DNA of 64,000 nt. It comes from Naegleria gruberi. Taxonomy: Eukaryota. Numbering within the stretch: position 1 is the stretch's first letter; every line of letters begins with the position of its first letter. Below are positions 26,205 through 63,872 of the stretch, piece after piece. Below the pieces are notes generated by a model. That model was not told the DNA's origin. It worked only from the letters and a program-made list of their open reading frames with translations, and made no database searches. Where the stretch lies: assembly GCA_000004985.1 (NCBI GenBank), contig GG738910.1. One strand, 5' to 3'. Made by a program: the position numbers and the translations under genes.

Positions 26205-28319
26205 TTAAACACTTGAGGAGGTTGAAGGAGAACTCACTTTCAATTGATCTTGTAATTTGGCTTGTAACTTTTTCCTGTTTTCAGCATTCTTTCTTTTGGA
26301 TCTTAGTAACAGGACTGTTGTAAAGATTACAATAATCAAAATAATTAAAAGAATGACCACCACACCAACAACACCCACAGTGATACCAATTGTTACTGCT
26401 GACTGATCAGAAGAGGTATATGTTGAGGTTTGTACCTTATTTTCACTCAGTGTCTTCTTAACAGACATGTCAATGACTCCAAATGAAGTAAGGTGACTCG
26501 TTTCACATTTGACTGATATTACAACTTGGAAATTGGTGTTATCTATTGTCTTGTTCAAGAAGGAGAGAATAGTAGTTTTCAACCCTGAAGATTCCCAAGT
26601 GTTTTTCAAAGTATTGTAATAGGCACAGGAATAATTCAAGTGCTCAGATTTACCAATTGAAACATTGAAGAAAGCTAATGAAATTGGATCTTGTAAACCC
26701 TTGATTGCAATTTCTTGAGCCGATTGTCTGTCATAGAGTGAAATGGACATAACTGTACTCTTCAATTTGTCACTATTCGAAAATAAAACTGGAGCAGAAT
26801 TAGTGCTTGGATCGTAAATGGACGAAACTAACACAATCTCGCTTACATTATTAATTTGATCACTCATTGTCGCTGGAAATTCAAAACTAGTCTTGAAACC
26901 GTCAAAGGAAACTGATTTGGAATCAAGTTCTGTAACATCCTTCACAACTGTCAACTTTTCAACATAACCGTTTACCAAAGAAGTGTTCAAACATGTAGAA
27001 TTTGCAGCCACAATCTTTCCATAACAATACTTGTATTCACAATATTGTCCAAAGTAATTTTCTTGGCATTCAACAACAGGTTCTTCCTCATTCATCCAAT
27101 AATCTCCAATGTCAGTTTCTCTCCAGTCTGGTATTGTGAGATTAAGTGGTTTTGTGACGCATAATGTACCATTAGAATTAATGGAATAATTTGTTGAATT
27201 ACACGAATATTCCATCATTAGAATTCTTTGATTATTGGTATCGGTTACTGTTATGGCCATAGAGGAAACTCCTGGTTTAGACAGAATGTTGATAGACACA
27301 CTTTCAGGACCTGACATGATTGTAGTTCCAGATACGGTTTGAATAATACCAGTACGCAAATCAATTCTTCTCAATCTGTGATTCCAACTGTCGGCAATGT
27401 ACAAATCATTTTGTAATCCCAAGAATAAATCTCGAGGACTGTTAATCATGGCAGAAGTTGCTGCCGAACCGTCACCTGCAATACCTCCATTTCCTGTTCC
27501 ACATATGGTTGAGATTATTCCAGTGGCAGCTGTTATTTTTCTGATTCTGTTGTTTTGAGTATCAGCAATATAAATGTCACCATTAGACATGATAGCAACA
27601 GCTTGAGGACCATTCAACTTGGCAGATGTTGACAATACGTTATCTGTAAATCCTGATGAACCTGCTGTTCCAGCAATTGTTGTAATAATACCAGTAAATA
27701 TATCAAGTTTTCTGACAATATGGTTAAGAGTGTCTGAAATGTACAAATATTTCTGTGTTGTGGTATCGAATGTAACTCCTCTTGGACCATTAAGCATGGC
27801 TTGAGTAGCTATTTTACCATCGCCTGAAAACCCAGCTGTCAAGTTGCCAGCAACAATAACGAGCTGACCTGTCATTAAATTTAACTTTCGAATAATATTA
27901 TTACCACTCTCAGCAATGTATAACGCATTCTCTGTAGTACTCATGGTAATCTGTCTAGGTTCATTGAGTTTCGAATATCTTGCTTTGAACTTTCCACCAA
28001 CGAGTGGTGATTCAGCAAAACCTTTCTCACCAGTTCCACATAAAGTCAGTAAACTGCCATTCGAATGAATAAACTTCAATTGATGATTGCCAGTATCAGC
28101 AATCAACACTCTTGAATAATTAGAAACCCTTACTCCAGCTGGCCAAACTAGAGCATAGTTATTGCCAGCATCAGCAATAGTTTTATAACTTGTGGCCGTT
28201 GGCGTTAATTGACCATTGACATGTTGTTGATCTAGCTGTGTCAGTTGACTAAAGAGCAGAGTTGTTATGATCGTTATTATTAAATGTAGAATAGTCATAG
28301 ATGAAACTGTTTGCTGCAT
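26205..28319 (-). CDS. Cluster member 1: NHL-repeat beta-propeller / single EGF-like / GPS-motif / single-pass TM surface protein (704 aa)
   Basis: Signal peptide (MTILHLIITIITTLLFSQL). Six or more NHL blades (e.g. ...YIADSGNNIIRKLNLMTGQLVIVAG..., ...YISDTLNHIVRKLDIFTGIITTIAG..., ...YIADTQNNRIRKITAATGIISTICG...). One EGF-like Cys knot. Juxtamembrane ...YSCAYYNTLKNTWES...VKCETSHLTSFGVIDMS..., a canonical GPS site (C-x-x-x-H-L-T-S-F-G-V). TM is VGVVGVVVILLIILIIVIFTTVLLL, followed by a basic tail. Single exon. Confidence 0.7.
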   Translation of the reverse strand: MQQTVSSMTILHLIITIITTLLFSQLTQLDQQHVNGQLTPTATSYKTIADAGNNYALVWPAGVRVSNYSRVLIADTGNHQLKFIHSNGSLLTLCGTGEKGFAESPLVGGKFKARYSKLNEPRQITMSTTENALYIAESGNNIIRKLNLMTGQLVIVAGNLTAGFSGDGKIATQAMLNGPRGVTFDTTTQKYLYISDTLNHIVRKLDIFTGIITTIAGTAGSSGFTDNVLSTSAKLNGPQAVAIMSNGDIYIADTQNNRIRKITAATGIISTICGTGNGGIAGDGSAATSAMINSPRDLFLGLQNDLYIADSWNHRLRRIDLRTGIIQTVSGTTIMSGPESVSINILSKPGVSSMAITVTDTNNQRILMMEYSCNSTNYSINSNGTLCVTKPLNLTIPDWRETDIGDYWMNEEEPVVECQENYFGQYCEYKYCYGKIVAANSTCLNTSLVNGYVEKLTVVKDVTELDSKSVSFDGFKTSFEFPATMSDQINNVSEIVLVSSIYDPSTNSAPVLFSNSDKLKSTVMSISLYDRQSAQEIAIKGLQDPISLAFFNVSIGKSEHLNYSCAYYNTLKNTWESSGLKTTILSFLNKTIDNTNFQVVISVKCETSHLTSFGVIDMSVKKTLSENKVQTSTYTSSDQSAVTIGITVGVVGVVVILLIILIIVIFTTVLLLRSKRKNAENRKKLQAKLQDQLKVSSPSTSSSV

Positions 28320-32404: not shown

Positions 32405-32461
32405 AATATTTAATTAAAATTTTCCTTTAGTGTGTTTGTCTAATTGTTTTTTGAATTCAAT

Positions 32462-34104: not shown

Positions 34105-37100
34105 ATGATGACGGTGACGGTACTGAGAGGAGTTAAGGGTGCAATCAATACTAACAGCGCAATATGGCACCACCCATGGAAATATTTAAAAATCATATTG
34201 CTTTGTATTTATTGGGTAGTAATTTTAAATAGTAATCATCATGTACAATGTACAGCAACATACAAATCGAAGGTAATTGTGGGAATGACATCATTGAGTC
34301 CTTTGAACAATGTGTCAATCTCAAGTAATTATGTGATTCCCGGAAATATTTATTTAGATAGTACTGCTGGAGTAATGTACACGACCGAAGATGCAAAAAT
34401 TAGAAAGATTACTCTTTCATCGGGTATTATTTCAACACTTGTAGGTTTTCTAGAAGTTTTTAATGGTTGTTAATTTATGTGTAAAAAACAAAAGGTTGGA
34501 AGTGGTAGATTTGGAACAACATATACAACTGATCCTACGACGACTCAAATGCATATGCCAAAAAGCTTAACACTATGGAAAACACACTTAATTTGGATTG
34601 ATGGATATGTGAGAATTAGAAAATTGGATTCATCCACTAATCAAGTTTCGGTAATTTTTGGTGCAGGAAATGGAAACTCTGACAATACTGTTACAAATCC
34701 TCTCTTGGTTCGATGTGGTTCTTCTTTGTCAATAACTGTAGATCCTTCAGATAATATTTATTTTGCAGATTTTGGTAAGTATTAATTCTTTGAAGTTACT
34801 TGACATTGGAAAAGATAATGTGATGGTAAGAAAAATTGACGGGACTACCAATGTAGCTAGTGTTTACAATTATTACCCTAGTGGTTTATTGGGTTATCCA
34901 GTTCAAATCAAATATTGTAATGGAGGCCTTTATGTATATGTAAATGATAACGTTAATTTCTATATTCAAAAATTGACGGAAAGTGATGGAACTGTTTATG
35001 CAAGCGTAGAGGTTGGAGGTGGTTCATCAAAAAGTACAGGTATTTCTGGAACTTCCTATCAAATGGATGCCACTAACTATGTTACCAAGATGGACTGTTA
35101 CAATAATGAGCTTTATTGGAATGCGTACGATTATAGCATTAGAAAACTAACAACTGGTGGAATTGTGGAACAGGTTTTGGGAAATGGATATAGAGGTGAG
35201 TCAGAAGATGGAACCATTACATCATCTTCAATAATTGGTTACATTGAATACTTAACTATTGATCAGGCGAATGGTGATCTTTACTTTGCTGAAAATAATT
35301 ACAACATTAGAAAACTTGTTGGAACTACTTTGTCTTCATTTTTGCATTATAGAAATGTATTGAATGAAGGAAATCCAAAAACTCTTCCATTAGTTACAAA
35401 GGCAATTGCTTTATACAGTGATGGAATTTATTTGGCTGAACCAAACAGTATTAAGTTTTACAATTTAACAAGTTCAACAATTAAGCATTTTGCGGGATAT
35501 TTTTATCTTCCATATAACAACAAAGCCCCAATAGGATCTTTAAATATTGGAGGTTCTTATGTGACTGCTAGATATTCTAGCATTCTATCTATGACATGCA
35601 CTCCAACAGGAGATATCTATTTGAGTGAGTATTATATGAATTTTCATTCAAAATTGATTTAATAGTTGATAATCATTATCCTGGATTTTTTATCAAATTA
35701 CTGTCAAAGAGCACGGGTTTAGTTACAATAGTAGCTGGCACAGCTTCTGCATTAGAGTGTGTTAATGGAAATACTCCAACTGCTTGTGCTATTACTGTAA
35801 GTATTTTTCTCTCATTTATTGTTTCCAATTTTATTCTAGAATGCCAAAAATATACAATATTACAATGGTGAGGTCTATTTTGCAACAGATATCTACATTT
35901 ACAAAATCAGCTCATCAACTGGAAAGATTGAGATTGTTTTAGGAGGCGGTACTTTCACTTCTGATGGTGCATCTTCATCAGCAAATATTGCAACGCTTGG
36001 TACGTTAATTGTCATTCTCTTTCATTTAATTCTTTTATAGGTGCTTTTACGATACGACCATCAGATGGAAAGATATATTACTTTCAACAAATCGGTTTTA
36101 CGTTTTATCTCAAAGTTTTCTCTACTTCAACAGTTACAACACTTTTTACTGTAAGTGTTGATTGAACTATTTAATCTAACTTAATTAAGACCTCTTCTGT
36201 TCCTCTTGTCCCATTCAGTCTTTATGTAAACGACAACGGTTATGTGTACTACACTGATAGTATGACTAATACTGTTAAACTTTTCACACCTACAACAGCT
36301 AATGCTAACACTGGTACACTTACGTCATATGCTGGTAATAGTTTTGGAACATATAATGATGGAGAAACTCTGGCTAATACCAAGTTCACTACACTTGTAG
36401 GTTTGACTTTTTCCAACGATAACAACTTGATGTTTGTTGCAGACGATAAACTCAGAATAATTTACAAGGAGTGTGATGCAAATTATGGTGGAGATTATTG
36501 TAATCTACCCTATTGTTACTCGATTAGATCTGATGACTCCACTGTTTGTAATTCTAATGGAAATTGTACAGATGTTAACAATTGTTTGTGTTCAAATGGT
36601 TTCTCAGGTGCTAATTGTTCTTCTTGGACTTGTAATGGATATTCAAATTCTCTTACAACTGGCTGTTCTTATCATGGTACTTGTACATCATATAACACTT
36701 GTAATTGCTCATCTAATTATTATGGATCTAATTGCTCAATTACAACATGTAATGATATTTATTCTAATTCAAGTGAAGTTTGTTTAGGAAGAGGTATATG
36801 TGCTCAAGTAGACGATTGCCATTGTGAATTTGGTTTTACAGGCAATAATTGCCAAAATTACAACTGCTCTGGAATTGCTTTTGACAATTCCAGTGTCTGC
36901 TCTTCCAGAGGATTGTGTTTATCTCCAAATAATTGTTCTTGTCAAAGTGGGTTTTTTGGAAATGAGTGTCAACACTATAATTGTTATGGAATTCTCGCTA
37001 ATTCGTCTCAAGTTTGTTCCTCAAGTGGTGTATGTTCATCTCCAAATAATTGCACCTGTAATGATGGTTACACTGGTGATGAATGTCACTTGACTTCCTG

Positions 37101-40100
37101 TTATGGCGTTTCTTCCAATAATTCAAAGGTTTGTTCAGGTCATGGAGGTTGCAGCTTTTATAATAATTGTATCTGTGAAAGTGGATATTTTGGAAATGAT
37201 TGCTTCTTCTATAATTGTTTTGGTATTCTGAATACCAATAGTTCAGTATGTTCTGGAAATGGTAACTGTACAATGCATGATACATGTGAGTGCAAAGAGA
37301 GTTTCACTGGATTAAGTTGTAATGTTACAATACCACAAAATAGTCCAATTATTAGTAATATTTCTTTTGGTAACATTACTTTTAATAATACTTCTATGAA
37401 TGAAACATCTTACTTTAACGAAACTCTCATGAGCAACATATCAATGACTAATGGCAGTTCAAATTATATTTCTTTGAGTAATAATACTGTAAATACCACT
37501 TCCTTAAATGATACAGAGTACTTTAATGAAACCAAAATGAACCCTAGCAACATATCAATAACCAACAGTAGTTTAAACTATACTTCTTTAAATGATACTG
37601 CAAATTTCAATGAAACCAAAATGAACAATGACTCTTCTCATAACTCAACTTCTAACACTAATGAAACGGATGTAAATTCTCCCCTCCTTCAACAAAATAC
37701 ATCCACTATCAACAATACCATTCTTAACAATAACGTCTCTGCTGAGTCCTCCCAAATTTATTTACTGGTTTCGTGTTTTGGTATTCTGAATACCAATAGT
37801 TCTGTCTGCTCAGGAAATGGTAATTGTTCAATGAATGATACATGTGAGTGCAAAGAGAGTTTCACTGGATTAAGTTGTAATGTTACAATACCACAAAATA
37901 GTCCAATTATTAGTAATATTTCTTTTGGTAACATTACTTTTAATAATACTTCTATGAATGAAACATCTTACTTTAACGAAACTATAATGAGCAACATATC
38001 AATGACTAATGGCAGTTCAAATTATACTTCCGAAAACTCAACTTTCACCGTTAACGAAACAGATGTAAATTCGTCTCCACAAAATACGTCAACAATCATC
38101 AACAACACCAACCCAACAACTTCTAACACATCTTCTGTTATGCAAAACAGCACATGCTATGGAACCAATTCTACTCTGGTCTGTAGTGGAAATGGAAAAT
38201 GTTTAACTAACCAACAGTGCTCTTGTGACTATGGATACGCAGGTGATGTATGTGAATTGAATACGTGTTTTGGAATTCCTTCTTCTGATAGAGTATGTAA
38301 TGGAAGAGGTGTTTGTTCAAATATCAATACTTGTGAATGTTTTTCTAGAATTGGAGTCAAGATTATGGGAGATGAATGTGAAACTTTGCTTTGCAGAGGA
38401 GTTTATAATGGTGTGGGGTATTTCTTTTCAGATATAGACTCAAGAGTTTGTTCAAACCATGGAAAGTGCTTTATTGATTTAAATAATTCTTCAGGCTGTT
38501 TTTGTGATTATGGTTATTATGGAGATTCGTGCAATAAGTATGATTGTTTCTCGGAGTCAAGCACTAGTGAAAATGTTTGCTCTGGACATGGAACATGTGA
38601 AAGTCCTGATACTTGTCAATGCTTAAATGATGACACAAATGGACATTTTGCAGGACCAAACTGTAATACATGTCATTCGGCATTTTCTGGATCATCTTGT
38701 AAAGACAAGACATGTACTGCTTCAACATGTTTGAATGGAGGTTCATGTGGAAATGAAAACCAGTGTGTTTGTACCAGTAATTTTACAGGACTGATTTGTG
38801 AGGATTGTAAATTAGACCATTATGGGTTAAATTGTAATGTCTATTGTAATTATGAAACTACGTGTAATGGACATGGATTTTGTGATATGTTGAATGGAAC
38901 CTGTTTATGCTTTTCAAGCAGAGAAAATGGATATTGGAATGGAACAAGTTGTAATTCATGCCTTGTAGACTATTATGGCAGTGATTGTTTAACTCGTTTT
39001 GATTCCTTCAATTCAACTTATTCTTCAGCATTATTTGGACAAATTTCAAAATATTTTGATGGAATATCATTCAAGTTATTTGGGCCTTCTTATTCACATA
39101 ACAGCATTTCATGTTCCAAATTAATTCACCCCAATGATTTTTCACTATTTGGTGTAGAACCAAAATGTTATTGGACAGATAAATTGAATGGTGTATTCAA
39201 AATAGAATTTGATAATGATTTTACATTTGACATCACTAAGGTATTGAGTATCCGATTGAATACAAATGTATTCTCCAATACCTTGATTGATTATGGGTAC
39301 ATTAGAATGTATTTGATTCTGTCTGACAATATTCAAGCACCAACAGCAAATATCAAAACCTCAAAAAAACTTTATTCCACGTCTGAGAATATTTATCTTA
39401 GTGCTAGTAACAGTTTTTCAGGAGATAAGAAAGGATTAGAATATTATTGGAGTATTAATGGACAAAATGTACCAATGAATGTTTTACAATCAACAATGTC
39501 AACAAAGGATCAAATTCTAAAAATTGAAAAAGATCAATTAACCAGTGGAACTTTCGTTATTTCATTATTTGTCAAAAGCCAAGTAAGCAAATTGTCGAGC
39601 TCAACTGAGTCAATCACTATTCAAGTTCAAGATGTTGAATTTCCCTCTGTTGTAATTTTAAATAAGGAAATTTCAGTGAAATCAATAGACAAATATATAA
39701 CAATCAAAAAGACAACCTCTATTCCAATATCTTTGAAAGAAAAGGAAATGAAAATAGAATGGCAACAAATAGAAGGACCAACATCCATCAAATTCAAAAA
39801 AGACTCTTACAATAATTTAGTTATTGAACAATTATCAATTGGAAAATGGAAATATGTTTTCAAAGTTTCAATATTTGTTGTTGAAAATCCAACATTAACC
39901 TCTAACGACTTCGTTGTAATCAATGCAGATCAACCAAAACTTTCACTATCATTATCATTGAAACAATCAACAAGAATATCTAATTCTATTCAGGTGAATT
40001 TTCAAGATCCTGAAAACAATTTAGATGAATACGAGCGTTGGAAGTGGACATGTATTGATGTTGCCACGGTTGGATATTGTGGTGATACAATTTATCAAAA

Positions 40101-49300: not shown

Positions 49301-52300
49301 AATGTGTCACAAAACATGTGAAGGAACTGTTGTGGACGCATCATTCATGTTAACGGAATTCTCAACTGATTTTAGCAAACCTGGCAATTTGGTGGTAGAT
49401 TCTGAGTACATTTATGTTTCTGATTCTGAAGACAATGTAGTTAAACGTTTTGATAAGGGTGGATATTCTTCAATTTATTGTGGAATTGAAGGACAAAGTG
49501 GCAACCAAGGAAATGGTTTACCAGGAACTGAAGCCACACTAAATTCACCTCTAGGTTTAAGTGTATACAATAATGAACTATTTATTGCTGATTTTAACAA
49601 TAGTGTCATCAGAAAGGTTGACGCTTTTGGGTTTGTTGATGTTGCATTCAATACAACAGAAAAACCTCTCAACATTATTGCCAGGGGCGAAAACGTATTT
49701 TACTATACAGATTCCACTTCATTGTACATGATTAACCAATCAGTTATTAGTACCATTGCAACAGGATTTGATAGTCCTTATGGATTGTTCTATTATTCAA
49801 ATACGTCCAACATGGAGGAAAGTTTACTAGTTGCAGATACCAATAATAACTCAATCAAGAAGGTATCTCTCTCTGATAGACAAGTTACCATAATTCTTTC
49901 TAATTTGAATTCTCCTAAAGGACTATTCATTGATTCTTTTGGTGATCTTTATATTGCTGACAGTGGATCAAACCAAATTTTAAAGTATTCAGGAGGTGTT
50001 TTGAAGGTAATTGCAGGAACATCCAATTCCTCAATGAATGGTACAGATGGTGCAATCAATTCACTTCAAGCAATTCTGCACTCTCCTAGTGATCTTATTG
50101 TAACAGATGAAGGAATTATTTATTTCACCGATTCACAAGGATATGCCGTGAAAACTCTCACTCCTGTTTGTGATAAAATTTCCATGTATGATCCAATTTT
50201 AAGAAAGTGTTTCCGACCTCTACTTTGTTTCAATTTTGGTATTGATGATAAGAGAGCTTGTAGCTCTAATGGTCAATGTGTTGCAGAGAATACCTGTAAT
50301 TGTAATGATAATTGGGGAGGGGATGATTGTTCCATTCCATCATGTTTCAACATTTCTGCTTCAAGTACCACTACGGTTTGTTCTGGACATGGTTTGTGTA
50401 TTGATCATAATACTTGTCGATGTGATACTGGTTGGTCTGGTGCTGACTGTTCAATTGCATCATGTTATGGTATCAAGGGTGATAACAGTTCAGTATGTTA
50501 CGGAAATGGCCAGTGTGTCGGTTTTAATCAATGTTCTTGTAATAATGGATGGTCTGATTTCGATTGTTTGACACCTTCGTGCTTTGGCTTGACCTATGAT
50601 TTGGATTCTTCATGTTCTGGAAATGGCAAATGTATTTCTAATGATACTTGTGAATGTTATTTAGGTTATCAAGGTCCTGATTGCTCTACAGTGTCAGTCG
50701 ATCCATTCCAAGTATACAATCCAGTACTAACTGTTAAGACTATTGGTTCTTTGAACAAACCAAAAGGAGTTACAGTATCTTCGAGTGGTGATATTTATTT
50801 CAGCGATACTAGCAACAATAAGTTGAAGAAGATATTACAATCTGATTGGTCTGTATCTCTTATTGCTGGAACTGGTACTGGTTCGTTTTCAGGTGATGGA
50901 TCTTCACCAACAGCAGCCACTATTAATAATCCTATTGGTTTGGATATTACAGAAAACGGAGAAGTTTATTTTGCTGATTCAAATAACAATAGAGTTAGAA
51001 AATGTAGTTATGATGGTAAATTAATCTCGACAGTGGTCCAAGTTACATCTCCTCAACAAGTCAAAATTGACGAATACAATAATCGATTGTGGATTGTTGC
51101 TTCTGGAGGAGTTTACATGTATGATTTGAATATTGCAAATATGACCCTTGTATACAGTAATGATCTCAATACTCCATTCGGAATTGATATTGGATATCAA
51201 GGTAAAATAGTGTACATTACAGACAAATCAAATCATGTTATTAGAAAGCTCGCAAAAAGAGGTAATTCATATGTTCAATCTATTTATTTTGGAAGTAAGG
51301 GAGTAACTGGAACCTACTCATCAACATCTAATATGAATAACCCAATGGGTATATCAGTAACTAATGGTAATAGTATTATATTTTCTGATTCCTCTAATCA
51401 TGTAATTAAACTGATTTCTCATGGAGTTAACAAGACAACATCAGTTATTGTTGGTACTGGATCTTCATCAGGTTATTCAGCAACAGAAACTAAACCTCTT
51501 TCCATGGCTCTAAATACTCCCGGTGATGTATTTGTGAATGAGAAAGGAATTTATATTGCTGATACCAATGACAACGCCATTAGAATTATTAAGATTTCAT
51601 GTCCATACACTAACTATGTTTTCAATTATTATACTTCCAAGTGTGAATTTGATACCAGAATTTCTTGTAATAAGATTTCATTTTCTTCACCAAATGTTTG
51701 TAATGGTAAAGGTGTTTGTTATGGAGTTGATAAATGCAACTGTACAAGTGGGTGGAATGGTACTTTTTGTGAAATACCTATTTGTTTTGGAGTGTCCAAT
51801 CCAAAACTAGCTTGTAGTTCAAATGGTCAATGTATTTCTAACAATACTTGTTCCTGTAATGATGGTTGGTTTGGATCTATTTGTCAAAATCCATCTTGTT
51901 TTGGAATTTCATATAATGATTCAAATACCTGTTCTGGAAATGGTCAATGTATTGCAAATAATACTTGCTCGTGTGATAATTTTTACGAAGGCAAAAATTG
52001 TTCTCTTCCAAAATGTTTTGGTATTAATTCAGACAGCTCATTGGTTTGTAGTGGAAATGGTTTATGCGTTAGCCCAGATACATGTAATTGTACTAGCGGT
52101 TATTTTGGAAATGATTGTTTTTACACAAATTGTTTTGGAATATTGTCAGGAGAAACTACTGTATGTTCCTCAAAAGGAAACTGTACTGCTCCAAATACTT
52201 GTTTTTGTGAAAAAGGGTATTATGGGAATCAGTGTCAAAACTTTACTTGTTTTGGAATTGACTCATTCAGCCCCAATGCTTGCTCATCTCGTGGAAGTTG

Positions 52301-55300
52301 TATTGACATCGATAAATGTAAATGTGGAGATGATTTTTATGGTTCTAATTGCACAGGGTTTGATTGCTTTGGTTATCCATCAACTAATCCAAATACTTGT
52401 TCTGGTAAGGGTGATTGTTTAAATCCAAACACTTGTATCTGTAATGATGGTTATGCAGGTGAAAGGTGTGAAATTGCTCGTTGTTTTGGAGTTTATGGAA
52501 ATGAATCAAACGTATGTGATTCACATGGTGAGTGTGTATCCTTAGATAACTGTACATGTACATCACTTCATCATTATGGAGATAATTGCGATAGATTTGA
52601 TTGTTTTGGAATTGAGAGTAGCAATTCAAGTGTTTGCTCTTCCCATGGAAATTGTACTTTCCTTGATATTTGTAATTGTTCGAAAGGTTACGAAGGTTTA
52701 TCATGTTCTGAATTCAATTGTTTTGGAAAAAAGCCAATCGCTTCTGATATTTGTTCTGGAAATGGCATTTGTACTGGTCCAAATATATGTAATTGCAAAG
52801 ATGGGTATTTTGGAGATGATTGTCAGATAACCAATTGTTATGGAATTCATAGTAATGAGTCTAGTGTATGTTCATCAAATGGTAGATGTATTTCTTTAGA
52901 TTCTTGCTCTTGCTCTTTTGGATATTATGGAGAGATGTGTCAAGAATATGATTGTTTTGGAATGAAACACTCAAATACAAGTGTTTGTTCACAACATGGA
53001 ACATGTCATTCTCCAAATAATTGCACTTGTAATGATGGATATCATGGTGCAGACTGTGATAGATTCAATTGTTTTGGAGTTTCTTCTTTCAATAGTTCAG
53101 TATGTTCATCAAGAGGTTACTGCAAATTACCAAATGTCTGTTCTTGCACTGGAACTTTTTATGGTGAAAATTGTGAACAATATGACTGTTTTGGAATCAA
53201 TTATCAAAACTCAAATGTTTGTTCCTCACACGGTAAATGTATTGGGGCTGATGCTTGTCAGTGTTATGATGGATATATATCTAGTAATTGTTCTGTTCCT
53301 CTTTGCTTTGGTATTTCAGCTCTTAACTCGTCAGTTTGTAGAGGACATGGTTATTGTACTTCACCTAATAAGTGTGACTGCATTTCGAATCAAGATACAA
53401 AGTTTGATGGACAGGAATGTCAAAATCATTTCTGTAAGGAATACGATGGAACCTTAATAAGGTTTAACAATAATTCAGTTTGTAGTGGTTCTGGAGTTTG
53501 TAAGTTAAATCGAGTCATGAAGAGAAGCGAATGTGTATGTAGTGAAAATTATGGAGGAGAGTCTTGTGAAATGCCAAAATGTTTCGGTATTTTACAAAAT
53601 GAGACAAGTGCTTGTAACAACAATGGATTTTGTTCAAGTGTAGATACTTGTGAATGTCATCATAATGATTTTTTTGGATATTGGAAGGGTTCTAATTGTA
53701 CACAATGCCAAGTTCCATATTCTGGATCCAAATGTAATGTTATTAAGGAGTGCAATGCTTCTGTCTGTCATAACAATGGTATTTGTGACGAGTACATGAC
53801 TTGCATTTGTAATTCTAATCAAACACATGGTTTCTGGAATGCAGAATTTTGTAACGTTTGTCAAGAAGGTTATTATGGAAAGGAGTGTTCCACGCAAATG
53901 CTTGGCCCTCTTAAATTAAGTGGAGAGGCATCATCCATGACATTCAAGATGAATGCTCCAATTTCATTTTCAAAGACAAGTGTTAACTGTACAAGATTTT
54001 TGAGGGAAGATTCTTATGAAACTGTTGGAGGATTGCAATCTATTTGTTCTTGGAATAATAGTATGATGAAAGTGACATTTGGTGCTTCATTTGATGTTAA
54101 ATCAGGTAGAATTATTTATTTGAATAGATTGGTCTTTGATGAGAGCGGATATGATTACGAACCGATCAAATTGGAATATCCAGATACACCAATCCTTCCT
54201 ACTGCCATTGTCGAATCAAACAAATTAGTTGGATCTTGCGACAGTATTATAATTGATGGAAGTAAGAGTTACTCTCCTGATTCTAAACCTCTTTCATTTT
54301 CTTGGAAAGTTGTTAATTCTCCAAATATTAATAGTTTGCAACACATTGTACAATCACAAACAAGATCTATTCTTTCCATTGATAGTAGCAATTGCTCTAC
54401 AGGTGTTCACATTTTCGAGCTGATTGTAAAGAGTTCTATATTAGAATTACAAAGTATTCCACTAACAATTTCCATCACTAAGGCAGAAATTCCTCTACCA
54501 ACTATTTCCATAGATGCACAAGCCTCCCCTCTCACAACTTCAAAGTTACCATACAAGATAATGAAAAGTACTGTTTTGCCTGATTGTGCTCAATCTTTGA
54601 GTATGATATATAATTGGAAGCTGGTGAGCGGTAGAAACGATATTGTTTTTGAGATGGATCAATTTAATAATTTAGTAATTATCAATTACTTCCTGGAAGA
54701 TTCAAGTTATGAATTTGAATGTAGTGTATTTGTGGAAGGACATGCAGAAAATATTATTACTTCAAAAGTTTCCTTTAGTACCAAGATTAGTCCTTTATCT
54801 TCTGAAATCAGACTTGTTGAATTATCAACCAATTATACTATTATTCAATTATTGTTCAGGGATCCAGAAATTGTTAATGAAGAGGTTAATGTTGAATGGG
54901 AGTGTATTGATTTGGACACCAAACTGAATTGTTCATCGTCACTTCTTTCCCATCTTTCAACTTTACCTCTTAACTCTGAATTTTTAATATCTGGAAGTTT
55001 GTTATCAAATTACAACAACATATCCTTGAAATCTACTATCAAGAAGGGAAAGAGAATTTCCAATAGTGAACTCGTAGTAACCATTCCTCAAAAAACACTC
55101 CCTCCAATTATTTCACCTGTTTATCTGTCGCCAAGTAATTTAGCTCTAGGATCGAGTATTAATCTTCAATTTGGTGTAACTATCGATGGAAGTGATGACA
55201 TTAGTTCAGCTATTAGTAGAAAATGGACTCTCAACAATGTTGTTATTGAAAAATCAGATAGTATGAGACTGGATCCATCTGAATCCAACTCCTTAATATT

Positions 55301-57002
55301 AGCAACTAATTCTTTTACAGAAGGGGCCACATACAAGATTGATTTCAAAGTGACTGACCAAAGAAATAATCAATTTTCAATCTATTCCTATTCTTTTTCA
55401 ATCAAGATTTCTCCAAAGTGTACATGTACAATTAGTCCATCATCTGGTTATGCTCTCCAAACTCTTTTTACATTTGCATGTACTGATTGTAAAAATAATC
55501 AAGGACCTTTATCGTTCGAATATGGCTTCATAGATAGTCGTTACCAAACTAGAGTAACCTTATCAAAGAGTTCTAAATATTCGGCCGTTCTCCCATCCTC
55601 TTATCAAGGAAATACATTGAATCTGTATGCTGTTGTTAGTGACTCTGTAAGTCAATCATCAAGTTATTTGAGTGCAGAAGTTCTTGTACCTGTCATTGGT
55701 TCACTAGCTGAAGCAAAGAAGAAACAACTTCAATGGAAAACAACAGGTTCCTCACTCAAAGATGGTGATTATATGAAGAGTGTGTATAGCAATGATGTTA
55801 TGACAAGTACTTTCACAAAGATGATTGCCTCTTTACTATCAGCAAGATCTGTTTGTAACGGAAAAGGAGTTCTAAATAATGGAAAATGTCAATGTGATAA
55901 TGGGTATTCTTCATTTGATTGTAGATATACCACTTCTGATTATGTATCCATTCAAGAGAGTGTATTTGATTTATCTAACGATTTTAAAGAAACATTTGGT
56001 GTTTATCTAGATTCCAAAGATATTCTAAGCGAAAAGTTTGTTGCCAATATTATTTTCGGACTTGAAACTTTGACAAATCGTTTTGATTTCTTGAATGAGA
56101 CATCTTTTGACATTATCTTATCAATTGTTGATCATTTATTGGAAGAACACGAAAAGTATTCATCAGTTCAAACATCCAATGGTGTAGATACGCTCTTACT
56201 CGATATTTTGGATCATTTATATTCTTTTACAGAATATTATGAGATTAAGGAACAATTAATGAGCAAATTAATTGAAATTTCCCAAAGACTCTCTTCACTT
56301 GAATCAAGAAAAATATTGGTCGGCCAACCTCCTTTAATTCTTTCCAATCAATTACAAACTTCAATTACCAACAAACATTTTAGAGAGGAATATTCAGGAC
56401 TAGTAATTAGATATAATAATTATTCTACTATACTACCAGAGTCTTTCTCAAAGCATCTATCCAATCAGCCAAAGAGAGTACCAGTTACTTACAGTTGGTT
56501 TGCTCTTAAAGATCTTTCACAATTCATATTACCAGGAAATGCATCAAGAATTATCTCAAAATATGTTGTGAAATTCACATTGGAAAAGGTTAAATATTTG
56601 GAATTATTGAAAGAACCTGTGAAATTTGAAATACCACTCATTGAACCAATAGACATGAATTCTAATAAGTATTCCTGTATTGACTTTTCCAACATGACAA
56701 TGCCAGTGGAAAGTGAGTGCCAATTTAAAGTGGAAAATGGAATAGCCTCTTGTTCTTGCTTAAACTACTCAAGTACCGTTGGAATAACATTCTTTGAACG
56801 CAGTCGAAGAGCTCCATCAATTCTTGCAGTTAAAACTGCACCACTTTGGGAATTATTCTCTCTACTCACAATTCCATTTGCAATAATTTTGGTTGGTTGT
56901 GCATTCACAATTAAAACGATTTTTAACAGAAAAATCAGCCTTGACAATAATCAATTCGAATTGAGAAACGTGGACAGCATGATTGTGACGGAATCAGCTT
57001 AA
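43397..57002 (+). CDS. Cluster member 4 (giant, ~4,400 aa): NHL propeller(s), ~45 tenascin-type EGF units, PKD/REJ-like module, GPS-like motif, C-terminal TM; 2 exons, approx join(43397..44687,44737..57002); functional start probably at the ATG at ~43697 (MATFIQEKQMAVSKGAQKSSIISTMMMIIFVCLLFLANSIRG signal)
   Basis: ORF 43397..44794 joins ORF 44766..57002 through a 49-nt intron (caaaatg|gtatgt...atatag|gaacaataacaactg), restoring ...RVRKVYQNG|TITTVCGNGMNMYGGDSL.... The module shares collinear blocks with member 5 (GSCDSIIIDGSKSYSPDSKPLSFSWKV vs GSCEDVLIDASESYSPDRKTLNFKWTV; KCTCTISPSSGYALQTLFTFACTDCKN vs KACSCAISPTSGIALTTIFTFNCENCQN; KSVCNGKGVLNNGKCQCDNGYSSFDCRYT vs KDCSGHGSLVNGKCVCEADYTTFDCRMT). 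Juxtamembrane YSCIDFSNMTMPVESECQFKVENGIASCSC, TM LWELFSLLTIPFAIILVGCAFTI. Confidence 0.6.
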
Positions 57003-57671: not shown

Positions 57672-58175
57672 TTTTCAAAATTCACATGTACCTATCCCTA
57701 TCATAAATTGCCCAAAATTGATAAGAGAAAGTTCTCCTACCTACTATTGACCATTCCGAACAATACTATATTGACAGTTTTCCAACTTGTTCAGTAGATC
57801 CATCAGTGATGATGAATTTAGTGAAAATTTTGACATTTCACCAAAATTATATTACTAAAAATTAATTTCCACAAATACTATTATTATATTGATGGCAAAT
57901 AACATTGATGATGATTGGTGAATGATCCGATGATGATGTACCAACTTGTGATTTTCCATGATGAAAAATAAATTCCAATTTCATGATGATAATCCACCAA
58001 TAAAAATTACTATTATTACTACTATATAGATCATGTTGAGATGATGATGTGAAAGTTTGGTTGTTTCATGATGTAAAACCACTCCGAAAATCATCAATGT
58101 TAAATATTTTTTAAACTTGGTTTTTGAGTAGAATGTTGAATATTTTTTTATGAAGTTTGTTGTGAGCGAGGTATG
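57672..58175 (+). repeat. Dispersed ~500-bp noncoding element, copy 3, immediately 3' of the minus-strand giant gene (58206..) and ~670 bp 3' of member 4
   Basis: Roughly 97-98% identical to the reverse complement of 32462..32928, apart from two ~20-30-nt indels. It carries the same small ORF on the minus strand (57981..58097; the track shows it extended to 58205 as a 74-aa ORF). Confidence 0.7.
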
Positions 58176-58205
58176 TTGTAGATTGCTGAAAAGAACAAGA
58201 GCCAT

Positions 58206-61200
58206 TTAAACAGACTTCATTTCAACTCCTTGTTTTGAGGAATTTGTAGTTTCTGGTTTCATTCTCTTAACAACACAATAACCAAAAATTCCCAATACAA
58301 TAAAGGCAATAATGATAAAGCAAATAATCAAAAAAGCCCACAAAATCCAGAATAACTCAGAGATTCCCTTTGGAGTTTCAGGATTAACTTGTTTTTCAAT
58401 TGGAACAGATGATAAAATACCAACTCTAACATTTTCTGAACATTCACATTGGCCAGAATTAGAATTGAAGGAGAATTTACATGAAGAAGCATCAATGACT
58501 TGACCATTTGTAACTTGAATGCACGAATAAGTTGCCTTATCATTAAAAGTTTGTGTAAGTGGCAAGGAATGAGTTATTGGAGAGGAATAGTTTGTAATAG
58601 ATGTTGAGAATTTAATTTCAGATAAATCAGAGACAATAGTATTAGTTGTACCTTCTTGTTGAGGAGTTACATATTGAGAAACATCCTTAATAATCATCCA
58701 AATGTAATTGACTGGCTTTCTGAGAGAGACACTTTGTAACCTTTGAGAAACAGTTGAAGGAAGAGTTAATGAAGTTTGACTTTCTGTCAAAACTTGTGAA
58801 TCAAAAGTATTCTTAAATTGCTTGTTGAATTGATGAACTGCAAAATTAGGTTCAAACTTGAAAGATGATTGACCAACAAGAACCTTTCTTGAAAGTAATG
58901 AAACCACCATGTGACAACTTTCCATCAATTCTGAATAGTCATACGAAGGCAAAGTCTTTAAATAAGAATGCATGGAATTGAGGGACGAAAGCAACAACCT
59001 TTCAACACCAACTTCAAATTGGAATAATGGAGTGTTTTCAGCATCATTCAAGGTTGACTTGATAATATTCATACTCATGTTATAGACATTAGCAGAAACG
59101 TAACTCTTCAACATAGATTCAATACCGAACATAATGTTAGTAAAAAACCTTCCAGTTATCTTTTCTCCATTTTCATTCTTGACTTGTTGGGAAGAAAAGA
59201 AAGCAGTAGCCAAATCTTGAGTAATTTCATTCAAAATTTCATAATCTTCCTTTGTCATTCTACAGTCAAATGTTGTGTAATCAGCCTCACAAACACATTT
59301 TCCATTAACCAATGAACCATGTCCAGAACAATCTTTCTTTACACTTCTTGATTTAGGGGCGAGAGAATCTGTCATTCTCTTGAGGACTCTTGAAATGATT
59401 GCAGAATTGAAAACAGATCTAGCATAATCACCAGTTGGTAATAATAAGGTGATGGCGTTCCATTTTGTCATGTACTCCTTGATATCCTTTACCTTTGATA
59501 CATATGGAGCTGTAATTTGAACTGATTTCTTGGAAAGAGTTGTTGCAGATGTTTCAGTATCAATAACCTTAACATACAGTTCAAGATTATTACCAGAATT
59601 TGGAGTTGGAAGTTTTTGGTACAATTCTTCATCCTTTGATAAGGTAATTAAAGCACCTGAGAAATCATCAATAAAACCATATTCGAAAGCATAAGTCTTC
59701 TTATCATTTTGACAATTTTCACAATTGAAAGTAAAGATTGTGGTCAAAGCAATACCAGAAGTTGGACTAATGGCACAACTACATGCTTTTGGAGGTCTGT
59801 TAACAGAGAAGGAATAAGAATATGATGTCTTTTGATTATTTCTCTTATCCAAGATAGTTAATGAAATGGTATTAGAACTACCTTCATCCAAATATTGAGT
59901 ATCCAAAATTAGAGAATTTGACAATGATGAACTGATACTCATTGGTGATGTTAATATAGCATCAATAGCCTTGTCATTCAATAACCATGTTCTTGAGATG
60001 AATTGATCTATATTTAAATCACCATTAATAGTGACAACCAATTGAATATTGACATAATCTCCCTTATTAACCTTTGAAGAAGATACTTGAACAACGGAGA
60101 TCAAAGGTGGCATGATTAAATGTTCTGCTTGTTGTGGAAAATTCAAATCAACTGATGATTGAACAAATCTACTTCCCTTTCGAATAGTGAGGCTAATTCT
60201 AACATTTTCTGCTGAACCAAACATTGACTTTTCAATCTTGTATTGTTCAAGAAAACCTTGAGACAAGTAATTAACAACATCAACTGGACAAACAGTATTA
60301 GTAACAGTGTCCACACATGTCCAAGAATAAGTTGGTTGAACATTTTCAGATTCTGGATCAGTGAAATCAATTCCAATGGTACTGTATTGAGGAGTAGAAT
60401 CTAAAACATACATGTTCATTGAGAGTGCTTGAGCTACAGTGTCGATAGTGACAAGAGCTGTTGAAAATTTGTTAACATTAGAAGTATCGAAAGCAGAGAC
60501 TTTGAAAACATATTGTCTTGTTTCAATGGTATTGAAATTGGTAATCTTTAAATTCTTGAATGAATCAACTGTGAATTCTACTTGAGGACCACTGATTTGT
60601 GTCCATGTGTAATCAATATTTGCAGCAGATTCCATGCATATTGGAATGGACAGCTTCTTCTTGAATGAAATTGGAACGTCACTAGTCTTGACAGTAACTG
60701 AACTACTTTTATATAAGCCATCAATGGAAACAACTGGAACAGCATAGGTAAGTTTGGTGAAACTGAATTGAATCTTATCAACCAATGAATAAACTTGACT
60801 AGTTACAGCCAATTCAAATTGATGAACACCAGCATTCATACCAGAATAGCTAATATTCAATTTACTTGGGGAAGCAAGAGTAGAATCCAATAACTTTTGA
60901 AGTTCTACCTTATTTGGTGATGACAATACAGTCCATTTGAAATTCAATGTCTTTCTATCAGGGGAATAACTTTCAGAAGCATCAATTAAAACATCTTCAC
61001 AACTTCCATAAGTGTCCTTAGCTCCAGATATTGTGGCAATCGGACTCTTTGGTGATAAAGCACCTTGGACAGTAAATGCCAAATATTGAGCATTGACATT
61101 ATTTGATTCAAAGTATAAATTATTCAAAGAGATACTATCACCTGCCTTCAATTTGTAGTCCGTGTTAAGTTCAATTGAGAATTCAAACGTTTCCTTGTTA

Positions 61201-63872
61201 GACCAGTAACATTTTGGATTAGTTCCAAGAAGATCAATACTCTTCAACAACTTGTTACAATCAAGAATCATACTATTAGTATATAAAGAAGAATAAGATG
61301 CAGGTGCAATAACCTTAAATGTCAAACCAGTCAAATCATCCATAAAAAGAACTGGTCCAATAATCTTTGTTGAACACAATTCACCATAAACTCCATCTGC
61401 ACAGGTAGAACAAGATTCACCCTTCCAGAAACCTTTCTTGTTATCTGCATAACAAGTACATTGTTCAAGCTCATTACAATAACCATTTCCACTACAAGTA
61501 GTTGAGGCATTACATTTAACCAAACTATTACACATAGCTCCTAAATAAGGAGAAACACATGCTGAACAATCTGCACCAGTCCAATAACCTTTGCCAGCTA
61601 TGTTATCACAGACACAAATATTCAAATCTGTACATTGACCATGTCCAGAACAAACAGATGAAGCATTGGAAGAAATGCCACCACAAGTGAATTGAGCACA
61701 ATGACTTCCGTAATATCCAGATTGACAAGAACAATGATCGAAAAAATCACATCTACCTTTTCCATAACATGCTGACGCATTTGTTGAGGCAGTTCCATAA
61801 CAATCAAATTGACTACAATCATATCCAGTAGTATCCATCTAAACAGGAGCAATTATTTGGGGAGATGCAACCACCATGTCCATAACATGCTGAACCACTT
61901 GTTGAGGCAGTTCCATAACAATCAAATTGACTACAATCATTCCCGTAGTATCCATCTAAACAAGAACAATTATTTGGTGAGATGCAACCACCATGTCCAG
62001 AACATGCTGATGCATTTGTGGAGGCAGTTTCGTAACAATCAAATTGACTACAATCATTTCCGTAGTATCCATCTAAACAAGAACAATTATTTGGTGAGAT
62101 GCAACCACCATGTCCAGAACATGCTGATGCATTTGTGGAGGCAGTTTCGTAACAATCAAATTCACTACAATCATTTCCATAATATCCAGCTAAGCATGAA
62201 CAGTTATTTGGTGAGACACAACGACCATAACTAGAACAAACTGAACCACTTGTTGAGGCAGCTCCAAAACAATCAAACTCAGCACAGTCATTTCCGTAAT
62301 GTTCGTTAGAGCATGAGCAATTATTTGGTGAGATGCAATCACCATGTCCAAAACAAACTGAACCACTTGTTGAGGCAGTTCCAAAACAATCAAACTCAGC
62401 ACATTCATTTCCATAGTATCCAGAGGTGCATGAACAATTATTTGGTGCAATACAATAGCCATTTCCAGAGCAAGCTGATGAATTACTTGGTGAAATATCA
62501 AAACATTTGAAAGAACTGCAATCTGATCCACTATATCCAGCTAAGCATGAGCAGTTATTTGGTGAGAGACAGGTTCCATGAACAGAACATGCTGATGCAC
62601 TTTTTGAGGCAGTTCCAAAACAATCAAATTGGCTACAATCATTTCCATAGTAATCGTTTGAGCATGAGCAATTATTTGGTGAGAGACATATTCCTTGAGA
62701 AGAACAAACTGATGAAGAAGTAAATAATGTACCAAAACATTCGTATTCACTACAATTACTACCATAGTATCCATAGGTGCATGAACAATTATTTGGAGCA
62801 ATGCAACTACCATGACCAGAACAAACTGATGCATTACCTGGAGCAATGTCATAACATTTGAATAAACTACAATCAGCACCACTGTATCCAGATAAACAGG
62901 AGCAATTGTTTGGAGCAACACAACTTCCATGTCCTGAGCAAACGTTGTGGTCAGTATTCAAAATATCACTACAATTAAAAAGTTGACAATCTGCACCAAA
63001 GTAATTTGTTTCACATTTACAAGTATCTATGGCTGTACATGTTCCGTGGCCTGAGCAAACAGTTGAGTTGTCACCTGAAATTCCATTACATGTTGGATAT
63101 TGACAAGTGTTTGGAGCAACACATGTGGTATATTGAGGACATGCTTTTGGATGTGTGGCCACAATACCATTACACTTTGGAGTTTGACAATTTGAACCAC
63201 CCCAAAGTACACCATAATCTGTCAAGCTGCCAGGAGGAAAAAAAGTATCCTTTCCAAACCCATGGAAAGGAAAAGTTAAACAAGCACCTTTAGTATTGTT
63301 AGCGAAATAATCAGACACTTGAAGTACTAACCTTCTAAAGAATAAAGAACCATGTTCCCATCAACTTGGAGAACAAATTTGAAAGGTGGAGACTGACTAG
63401 CACACTCACCAGTTTTCATGGCTTCCCTGTGTTGATTCAAATCTGCCTTTTCCGTGTTACCGTCGTACAATTTAAGAGAACCAGTTTGTGTTAACACTAA
63501 CTTATAACCATCAGTTGCTGGGCCGAAAGTAGAACTATACCGAGTCATTGTTCTGAGACCTATCTGAATGAGACTACCATCATCGTTCAAGATTAAAGTC
63601 AACTTTCCATCAGCAGATGTTAATGCTTTAGTTGCATAGAGAATTGGTGATTGTTCAGTGAGGCCTGTTTTTTCTGAAAGATCAACACAGAGGCAGCTGT
63701 TTTCACCATAGCAAATATTCCCTCCACAAGTCGAATTGTCTGTTCCAGGAATTCCATTACAAGTATATGAAGTAACCTCACTGATTATGAAAAGCAAAAG
63801 GATTACCAACACCGACACGAACAGTTTCATGTTGTGGATTTTTTTTAAAGTCGAATTTTCAAATTGAATCAA
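58206..63872 (-). CDS. Cluster member 5 (giant, ~2,400 aa, minus strand): signal peptide + bulb-type (B) lectin domain exon, tenascin-type EGF array, PKD/REJ-like module, GPS-like motif, C-terminal TM. Interrupted by an apparent 1-nt frameshift at ~61822-61838. Approx join(complement(63332..63872), complement(~61822..63287), complement(58206..~61838))
   Basis: Exon 1 (ORF 63327..63872) is MKLFVSVLVILLLFIISEV... followed by ...ATDGYKLVLTQTGSLKLYDGN...FKFVLQVDGNMVLYSLEG, the bulb-lectin 'QxDxNxVxY'-type fold. A 44-nt intron (gttagt...gctaac...ctaaag) puts it in frame with ORF 61819..63318, which is all CxCxxGYxGxxC units. That frame hits TGA at 61819 exactly where a repeat unit reads GYYWI* in place of GYYGNDCSQFDCY. 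The +1 frame continues as MDTTGYDCSQFDCYGTAS... (ORF 58206..61838). C-terminus: YSCIQVTNGQVIDASSCKFSFNSNSGQCEC..., TM LFWILWAFLIICFIIIAFIVLGIFGYC, tail VVKRMKPETTNSSKQGVEMKSV*. Confidence 0.55.
61822..62290 (-). repeat. Tandem array of near-identical 117-nt (39-codon) EGF-unit repeats inside cluster member 5
   Basis: Units encoding DCSQFDCY(E/G)TAST(N/S)(A/G)SAC(S/Y)GHGGCISPNNCSCLDGYYGN are repeated at least three times (approx 61822..61938, 61939..62055, 62056..62172) with about 1-3 substitutions per unit, and more divergent units farther 5'. The antisense strand reads as the spurious His-rich ORF 61809..62234. Confidence 0.75.

Follow-up and report, generated by a model that had tools for sequence, protein, structure and literature searches.

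Five adjacent Naegleria gruberi genes probably encode single-pass surface proteins of a lineage-expanded REJ-GAIN family

What kind of membrane protein is encoded by the five adjacent genes g1 to g5 of Naegleria gruberi, a free-living amoeboflagellate of the Heterolobosea, and do their propeller or lectin heads, EGF repeats, REJ and GPS elements on one membrane helix amount to a new type of receptor? The genes lie in a stretch of 64,000 nucleotides (nt) of contig GG738910.1 (assembly GCA_000004985.1), called the window here, with a GC content of 31-38%. A model's reading of the letters without database searches (the sequence-only reading) had placed five neighbouring receptor genes at the positions below, which are matched by our gene models and, for g1, g4 and g5, by NCBI proteins.

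26205..28319, minus strand: g1, a single exon encoding a type I membrane protein of 704 amino acids (aa), identical to XP_002670972.1
29586..32404, plus strand: g2, 910 aa, exons 29586-29811, 29854-30023 and 30068-32404
34105..42357, plus strand: g3, an open frame of 2664 aa in 7 exons, 34105-34440, 34495-34774, 34815-35624, 35666-35796, 35840-35999, 36041-36150 and 36190-42357
43397..57002, plus strand: g4, 4502-4518 aa, exons 43397-44687 and 44737-57002, with one 49-nt intron
58206..63830/63872, minus strand: g5, annotated as P0005, 1835 aa

The tandem cluster probably encodes type I surface glycoproteins of a lineage-expanded REJ-GAIN family, in which the juxtamembrane unit of polycystin-1, REJ proteins and adhesion G protein-coupled receptors (GPCRs) is carried on one helix. 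We see in it a variant of known REJ-GAIN receptors that has expanded within a discoban protist lineage, and not a new kind of receptor.

The Pfam REJ domain (PF02010) matches g3, g4 and g5 with 56.7, 96.2 and 78.2 bits, compared to a gathering score of 25, and is absent from g1 and g2; a K319L-like PKD domain in g5 is also above its gathering score (31.3 bits). The three giant proteins g3, g4 and g5 are collinear, with 24-33% identity, over the roughly 1000 residues between their EGF array and the transmembrane (TM) segment. Pairwise blastp comparisons of this module give E values of 1e-82 to 0, and g4 and g5 share 35% identity over 1630 aa. The alignment and blastp results confirm the collinear module of about 1,000 aa that the sequence-only reading described in the giants, and the two motif blocks reported with it, "DxSxSYSPDxxxLxFxW" and "KCxC(T/A)ISPxxG....TxFTFxCxxCxN", are found in all three. 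The module lies at the following positions:

38998..42144, plus strand: g3 module, leading from a PKD-like/REJ region over a helical GAIN subdomain A to a GAIN subdomain B with C..C..CNC and without H-L-T (alignments, HHalign)
53904..56837, plus strand: g4 collinear REJ-EGF-GAIN module (REJ match, module alignment)
58365..61358, minus strand: g5 collinear REJ-EGF-GAIN module, with the GAIN domain at aa 1485-1783 of P0005, with C..C..CEC and without H-L-T

Between the two smaller proteins, g1 and g2, collinearity extends from the propeller as far as the TM segment (26% identity over 677 aa, E value 4e-36). Their likeness to the giants is limited to the NHL region, which is the only region matched by blastp, and to the GPS-type C-terminus. 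By sequence comparison the genes form two subfamilies, a small one (g1, g2) and a giant one (g3, g4, g5). The view of five equivalent paralogues thus holds for the adjacency of the genes and their common NHL and GPS parts, but the equivalence itself gives way to these two distinct groups. The structural cysteines of the EGF, REJ and GPS parts are conserved across the paralogues.

The GPS motif separates the members further. The g1 sequence C-E-T-S-H-L↓T-S-F-G-V (the arrow marks the predicted cleavage bond) lines up with the CxCxH(L/T)T motif of the Naegleria seven-transmembrane RGS (7TM-RGS) proteins and of metagenomic relatives, in agreement with the canonical GPS expected for one small member. 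The residues at this position are K-L↓S in g2 and unrelated in g3 to g5. The g1 sequence H-L↓T-S-F-G-V resembles the ADGRG-type tethered agonists (TSFG(V/I)L..). The tetracysteine motif C..C..CxC had been attributed to all five proteins at 10-25 residues before the TM segment; it is invariant in g3 to g5 only, and the distance from the last GPS cysteine to the TM segment measures 28-39 residues (28-33 in the giants). In canonical GPS motifs, the disulfides pair C1 with C3 and C2 with C4, and since g1 and g2 retain only Cys1 and Cys3, one disulfide pair appears to have been lost together in these two proteins. The corresponding features are as follows:

26445..26987, minus strand: GAIN subdomain-B-like beta-sandwich of g1, about aa 445-625
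26487..26495, minus strand: predicted autoproteolysis site of g1, H609-L610↓T611, followed by TSFGVIDM, a tethered-peptide-like strand (sequence reading)
32177-32185, plus strand: codons of the variant GPS of g2, K-L↓S
32285-32380, plus strand: TM segment of g2

For the giants, the four cysteines are in register with the canonical CxCxH(T/L)T GPS of the Naegleria 7TM-RGS proteins, and the decisive evidence for a GAIN domain, which comes from profile comparison, is transitive. The profile built from the giants only aligns by HHalign to ten canonical-GPS relatives with 97.1% probability (E value 6.7e-11, 287 columns, CxC in register), and these ten relatives match the GAIN domains of ADGRL3, ADGRF1 and ADGRG6 in the PDB with E values of 2e-11 to 1e-9, ADGRL3 being the best at 2e-11. 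A combined profile of the giants and the 7TM-RGS proteins likewise retrieves almost only adhesion-GPCR GAIN domains from the PDB (E value 1e-5). The two-sequence profile of g1 and g2 has no match among the PDB sequences.

The AlphaFold2 model for g5 residues 1485-1783 has five helices (model residues 4-124) followed by strands, and the only two Foldseek matches with E<1e-3 are the chains of the BAI3 GAIN structure (PDB ID 4DLO), with an E value of 6e-5 over 305-330 columns. The structure prediction of the juxtamembrane region, which the sequence-only reading had proposed as a check, therefore points to a GAIN fold, albeit at low model confidence. The model for g1 residues 375-640 matches the GAIN domains of CL1 and ADGRL3 at E values of about 2e-3, after which the E values jump to 0.36. 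No helical GAIN subdomain A is present in g1 and g2. From the profiles and models we conclude that the GAIN domain is probably complete in g3 to g5, with subdomains A and B, and consists of subdomain B only in g1 and g2. The same reading had named a lack of REJ/PKD and GAIN profile matches, together with the lack of a GAIN fold, as grounds for abandoning it; the REJ matches are above the gathering score and GAIN homology is found.

All five proteins have a hydrophobic N-terminal segment and exactly one C-terminal TM segment, followed by a mostly basic tail of 10-45 residues; here topology prediction and the sequence-only reading agree. The protein g1 consists of a signal peptide, a six-bladed NHL propeller, GAIN subdomain B with the GPS, the TM segment and a basic tail of 35 aa. 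In g2 the signal peptide is followed by about 12 NHL blades (two propellers), GAIN subdomain B with the variant GPS, the TM segment and a 10-aa tail. The order in g3 is a degenerate NHL-like propeller region, about 14 EGF units, the REJ-GAIN module, the TM segment and a 43-aa tail. The largest protein, g4, has five NHL-type propeller regions interleaved with EGF units, the main EGF array, REJ, one EGF unit, GAIN, the TM segment (56844-56912, plus strand) and a 26-aa tail, and g5 has a signal peptide, an EGF-like knot, a bulb-type lectin, about 13 EGF units, REJ, one EGF unit, GAIN, the TM segment and a 22-aa tail. The C-termini of g1 (...SSSV), g2 (...LSKI) and g3 (...ISLL) have the form S-x-hydrophobic, resembling class I PDZ-binding motifs, which may be chance.

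The head domains vary between the members. Pfam NHL matches above the gathering score are found for g1 (72.7 bits), g2 (115.5 bits) and g4 (68.8 and 97.7 bits), along with TEN_NHL. The g3 region gives only a degenerate TEN_NHL match of 17.3 bits, below the Pfam threshold, and is matched by the g1 and g2 NHL regions in blastp with E values of 1e-6 to 5e-8. For g5, Pfam finds no NHL domain, and the Pfam B_lectin model does not match the single N-terminal sequence even at E=10. A profile of the g5 N-terminus and two Naegleria fowleri homologues was searched against the PDB sequences, and about 28 of the 32 matches are monocot-type lectins (best E value 1.8e-7), including the garlic and snowdrop lectins (1.8e-7 to 2e-4). 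One sugar-site motif, QVDGNMVLY (QxDxNxVxY), is intact. By this profile evidence the g5 N-terminus is a bulb-type lectin and a putative sugar binder. NHL heads with a bulb lectin in one member had been anticipated, and this stands for g1, g2, g4 and g5 and is less certain for g3 with its sub-threshold match, while the swapping of head domains between the lectin of g5 and the NHL regions of the others is borne out.

27225..28187, minus strand: NHL beta-propeller of g1, about aa 45-365, with six "Y-I-A-D-x-x-N-x-x-I-R-K" blades (Pfam NHL and TEN_NHL)
63332..63653, minus strand: bulb-type (GNA-like) lectin of g5, most of the domain, which runs a few residues beyond the intron

The EGF stalks number about 14 core units in g3, about 25 in g4 (about 19 of them in the main array) and about 13 in g5, and not the 30-45 units first estimated for the giants. 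The units score above the Pfam EGF gathering score and are of the tenascin/teneurin type.

The gene models underlying these architectures rest on long open reading frames (ORFs) and short introns. Uninterrupted ORFs of 704, 722, 2037 and 4078 codons occur in DNA of 33-35% GC, and the frames of 2037 and 4078 codons in 33% GC DNA argue for a maintained coding capacity. All introns have canonical GT-AG ends, and their removal restores repeat motifs. In g2, removal of the two introns (29812-29853 and 30024-30067, 42 and 44 nt) restores consecutive NHL "D..N..IRK" blades ("IYISDRINNRIRKL", "IYFADTNNHRIRKV"). The six introns of g3 are 39-54 nt long and are all located within the 5' quarter of the gene. 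The g4 model is identical to XP_002670943.1 except for the start methionine chosen. Both the maximal ORF and the NCBI model of g4 begin at least 100 codons upstream of the sole signal-peptide-like segment (aa 118-143; 5' end, 43397..43700), and the true start is probably an internal methionine (MATFIQ... or MAVSKG...), as judged from the sequence. A fusion of several genes was considered for g4 and rejected, given the 4078 codons in one uninterrupted ORF, the canonical intron to exon 1 and the identical NCBI model.

The annotation requires correction for g5. All five genes are annotated as "predicted protein", and the g5 model conceals a frameshift within its EGF array:

63288-63331, minus strand: true intron of g5, 44 nt
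61749..62943, minus strand: about 10 EGF-coding units in tandem, each of 117 bp (Tandem Repeats Finder and unit alignment)
61827, minus strand: extra T causing a +1 frameshift, one EGF unit having 118 instead of 117 nt

The 117-bp units have 77-78% matches, some being near-identical. The extra T makes the frame run into a stop, and the NCBI model (P0005) gets past it with a forced intron, so that two EGF units become one hybrid with nine cysteines. We considered a genuine short intron for this second junction and rejected it; the sole GT..AG option has 32 nt and leaves the wrong frame, and the repeat unit itself is 118 instead of 117 nt long. The sequence is compatible with either a sequencing or assembly error in the repeat or a real disabling mutation. 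Among the ORF joins proposed by the sequence-only reading, the introns of g2, g3 and g4 and the first g5 join are retained, and the second g5 join is replaced by the +1 frameshift.

The module is not confined to the cluster. A HMMER scan with the module profile retrieves 7,874 proteins with E<=1e-3 and 250 with E<=1e-30; the homologue search with the module alignment gave only 6. The best approximately 25 of the 250 matches are single-pass proteins with a degenerate GPS, EGF and REJ cores and varying heads, and the identifiable ones among them come from N. gruberi ("predicted proteins" spread over at least 10 scaffolds) and, in one case, from Naegleria lovaniensis. N. gruberi has at least 13 paralogues, all uncharacterised. 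The next tier of matches covers the whole module, with REJ, one EGF, a Pfam-significant GPS and then 5-9 TM segments; one of these proteins is from Percolomonas (Heterolobosea). No PLAT, PKD-channel or 7tm match was found by Pfam in these multi-TM relatives. Willaertia has a single-pass member with a canonical GPS. A canonical GPS is present in 40 of the 150 best module matches (27 multi-pass, 13 single-pass), and because of these 13 single-pass proteins the single-helix REJ-GAIN unit is, on profile evidence, widespread in uncharacterised eukaryotic sequences.

Among known proteins, sea-urchin SpREJ1 (suREJ1), and also SpREJ8 and SpREJ9, come closest to g3 to g5 in overall architecture; they are PKD1-family proteins with lectin, EGF, REJ and GPS regions and one TM segment (PMC1934368). 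SpREJ1 is described as a carbohydrate-sensing surface receptor (PMC1934368). Like the giants, it is a type I protein with one TM segment and a short tail, combining lectin, EGF and REJ with a GPS just before the membrane. It differs in having C-type lectins and one EGF, compared to NHL or bulb-type lectin heads and 13-25 EGFs in the Naegleria giants, and the SpREJ GPS is assumed to be cleavable, whereas that of g3 to g5 is degenerate. The proteins belong to Metazoa and Heterolobosea, respectively, and are related here at the domain level only. The single-pass anchor, taken by the sequence-only reading to set the family apart, is therefore no distinguishing feature: SpREJ1, 8 and 9 have a single TM segment (PMC1934368), as do 13 of the 150 closest relatives together with a canonical GPS.

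Polycystin-1 and the PKD1-like proteins also place REJ and then GAIN/GPS before the first TM segment, with PKD-type Ig-like domains upstream. Their PLAT domain, 11-TM bundle, channel-like last six TM segments and coiled-coil tail are without a match in g1 to g5, and a Pfam search finds neither PLAT nor PKD_channel in the five proteins. By sequence, the missing PLAT and 11-TM body rule out proteins of polycystin-1 type but are compatible with those of SpREJ1 type, because SpREJ1, 8 and 9 likewise lack them.

Within the genus, a published parallel is provided by Bosch et al. (2022, PMC9283941), who reported 7TM-RGS proteins of N. fowleri that carry lectin domains and EGF repeats along with GPS motifs. 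P0016 and P0017 (N. fowleri) and P0019 (N. gruberi) are of this type, with a GAIN domain and canonical GPS directly before the seven-TM bundle. The Naegleria 7TM-RGS proteins (Nf 7TM RGS1-4 and related) carry either an NHL head or, at the N-terminus, a homologue of the g5 bulb lectin with 27-29% identity, and share with the window genes the tenascin-type EGF arrays, an "ISPxxG..T.F / F.(F/Y)GF" pre-GAIN block and the GAIN domain. What sets them apart is a GPS of the canonical CxCxH(T/L)T form, seven TM segments and a cytoplasmic RGS box, whereas the window genes have one TM segment and no RGS; REJ is absent from the listed domain matches of the 7TM-RGS proteins. Our literature searches found no paper on these loci or on a single-pass Naegleria REJ/GAIN family, and nothing specific on REJ in unicellular eukaryotes, in line with the suggestion of an undescribed family, but the ectodomain parts themselves have been published for the 7TM-RGS proteins (PMC9283941).

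Adhesion GPCRs share with the window proteins a GAIN domain whose final strands, next to the membrane, are the GPS, and also large adhesive N-terminal fragments with EGF and lectin domains. They continue into a class B2 7TM domain, whereas g1 to g5 have one hydrophobic segment after the GPS and no 7tm match; in addition, GAIN subdomain A and the C2-C4 disulfide are missing from g1 and g2, and the catalytic residues from the giants. Teneurins likewise combine EGF repeats and an NHL propeller on a single-pass protein, and teneurin-type EGF and NHL are the best-scoring Pfam models. However, teneurins have a type II topology, end in a YD-shell/Tox-GHH region, lack REJ and GAIN, and show the reverse domain order relative to the membrane. 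The five proteins have an N-terminal signal and a C-terminal TM segment instead, and Pfam finds no YD/RHS domain in them. The dictyostelid Tgr proteins (tgrB1/tgrC1) have IPT/TIG ectodomains and are encoded by pairs of highly polymorphic genes; in g1 to g5 there is no IPT/TIG match in Pfam, and the host is Naegleria.

From the observed gene structures, domain identities, GAIN and REJ homology and family size, we infer a surface location, a type of ligand, cleavage and a signalling route for these proteins. The distal heads, being NHL propellers in g1 to g4 and a mannose-type bulb lectin in g5, would capture external ligands, most plausibly glycans or the surfaces of prey bacteria, the substrate or other cells. 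The EGF array would serve as a stiff stalk keeping the head far from the membrane, and the REJ module and GAIN domain as a membrane-proximal mechanical and proteolytic element. On its way through the secretory pathway g1 would cleave itself, and the resulting N- and C-terminal fragments would remain joined non-covalently and could be separated by force or ligand, while g2, with its K-L↓S, is doubtful as a cleaving member. The GAIN domain of g3 to g5 is presumably structural and non-cleaving because the catalytic residues are lost and both GPS disulfides are kept. Since the tails consist of only 10-45 basic residues, the output would be adhesion itself or would run via partner membrane proteins, for which the Naegleria 7TM-RGS receptors, built with the same ectodomain modules, are candidates.

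Several observations weigh against this interpretation. The Pfam GPS matches of g1 (20.3 bits, E value 8e-4) and g2 (17.3 bits) are below the gathering score, and the single sequences of g3 to g5 have no Pfam GPS match even at E=10; among the profile searches suggested by the sequence-only reading, NHL, EGF, REJ and PKD (g5) are above threshold, but GPS is sub-threshold or absent and B_lectin finds nothing. The giants-only profile ranks ADGRL3 first among the PDB sequences with a non-significant E value of 0.08. Both AlphaFold2 models have low confidence (predicted local distance difference test score of 60 for g5 and 59 for g1) and derive from shallow alignments with 8-9 sequences each. Foldseek gives low TM-scores of 0.29-0.39, and for g1 three axonemal DNAI7/IC97 chains outrank the GAIN matches. 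The gene g5 may be a pseudogene or mis-sequenced. Expression, localisation and cleavage are predictions from sequence, and the ligand class and the idea of partners are pure inference.

Three other explanations have to be weighed with these points in mind. The proteins could be ligand-binding or decoy subunits derived from multi-pass receptors, having lost a 7TM-RGS or polycystin-like membrane domain and acting only in a complex, much as is assumed for SpREJ1 and its channel partners. The same ectodomain of lectin or NHL, EGF, pre-GAIN block and GAIN is indeed found on the 7TM-RGS proteins P0016, P0017 and P0019 (PMC9283941), the module has full-length matches to REJ-EGF-GPS-multiTM proteins, one of them from Percolomonas, and the very short tails argue against autonomous signalling. 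However, such complexes and the loss of the multi-TM part are hypothetical, and the single-pass canonical-GPS members among the best matches (13 of 150) suggest that the single-pass form may be ancestral; we consider this explanation unlikely. It is highly improbable that the genes are largely non-functional, decaying copies or over-extended gene models whose architecture is a relic, although the +1 frameshift bridged by a forced intron in g5, the loss of catalytic GPS residues in g2 to g5 and the degenerate NHL region of g3 would fit such a decay, and look-ups by exact sequence turned up no transcript contigs or further alleles for the intron-containing genes. ORFs of 704, 722, 2037 and 4078 codons at 33-35% GC cannot persist without selection, the introns are all canonical GT-AG and restore repeat motifs, and the structural cysteines are conserved across the paralogues. 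A loss of H-L-T with the fold retained is common in functional GAIN proteins, BAI3 GAIN having been crystallised uncleaved (PMC3321182). Because of the very long open frames and conserved structural cysteines, a pseudogene explanation fails for g1 to g4, and it may still apply to g5.

The sequence-only reading itself leaned towards a locus of cell-cell adhesion or self/non-self recognition and referred to the polymorphic loci of social amoebae. By analogy with tgrB1/tgrC1, the cluster would be a polymorphic self/non-self or kin-recognition locus in which repeat turnover and head swapping serve partner discrimination. The tandem genes and variable heads (NHL versus lectin) are in keeping with this, and the near-identical 117-bp EGF units and the frameshift suggest ongoing repeat turnover. 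However, identities of 25-35% mark the paralogues of the cluster as old, and members of the family are scattered across at least 10 scaffolds. The sole second g1 allele lies on a genomic contig of an ENA metagenome and has 3 differences in 2115 nt (0.14%), like its flank; two of the three are non-synonymous, too few to interpret or to give a dN/dS. The IPT/TIG architecture of the Tgr proteins is missing, and to our knowledge N. gruberi has no aggregative multicellular stage. The recognition hallmarks thus find no support, the social-amoeba analogy has no basis in an organism that is N. gruberi, and we regard a recognition locus as very unlikely. A lineage-expanded family of REJ-GAIN surface proteins remains the preferred interpretation.

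Most discussion of the GAIN domain and of the REJ-GAIN tandem treats them as features of animals or holozoans, in connection with polycystic kidney disease and adhesion-GPCR signalling. According to a recent survey, complex N-terminal fragments with GAIN appear restricted to holozoans, where the GAIN-7TM module also arose (PMC12716839, 2025). The present cluster provides a discoban amoeba with a large family of elaborated adhesion-type ectodomains, composed of propeller or lectin, EGF stalk, PKD/REJ and GAIN, contrary to this restriction, and, judging by sequence, GAIN and 7TM seem to have been linked in the Naegleria 7TM-RGS proteins independently or earlier. The family of the cluster includes both a probably cleavable member, g1, and others that, by their residues, are clearly non-cleavable. 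A simple single-pass system in a culturable, non-pathogenic relative of N. fowleri gives access to the role of GAIN without a 7TM or 11TM domain in cis and to surface and prey recognition by amoebae. One could go further and propose an expanded, hitherto unrecognised heterolobosean sensing system in which the single-pass REJ-GAIN proteins, with propeller or lectin heads, are interchangeable ligand-capturing subunits, docking on 7TM-RGS receptors or polycystin-like multi-pass proteins with the same GAIN module or releasing a tethered peptide towards them. We hold this to be rather improbable; if true, the "receptor plus transducer" arrangement of polycystin-1/suREJ type and GAIN-mediated mechanosensing would be ancestral to eukaryotes and not a holozoan or metazoan invention. 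Overall, the cluster has a moderate bearing on how GAIN, polycystin and adhesion-receptor ectodomains evolved and on Naegleria surface biology.

Neither tRNAs nor other features were found in the intergenic gaps of the cluster. About 2.5 kb upstream of it lies a gene for a Glyco_transf_61 protein (PF04577, 76 bits; 21988..23649, plus strand). The Glyco_transf_61 family includes the EGF-domain O-GlcNAc transferase EOGT. An ORF at 13976..15058 (plus strand), which has no Pfam match, shares with this neighbour the motif "F(L/V)xR(D/E)...N(L/M)FH(S/A)M(T/S)DF" and may be a partial paralogue of it or continue beyond an intron. The signalling gene neighbourhood also includes a membrane protein of 1061 aa at 17305..20490 (plus strand); its long N-terminus is N-rich, and an adenylate/guanylate cyclase catalytic domain (PF00211, 26.5 bits) lies at its C-terminus. 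The aconitase gene at 8382..11117 (minus strand) encodes a protein identical to XP_002670969.1 and is located on the same 243,952-bp scaffold as g1. The metagenome contig with the second g1 allele (ENA ERZ929261, contig L001, 2890 bp) contains g1 at 99.86% nucleotide identity, indicating a near-identical NEG-M-like strain in the sample.

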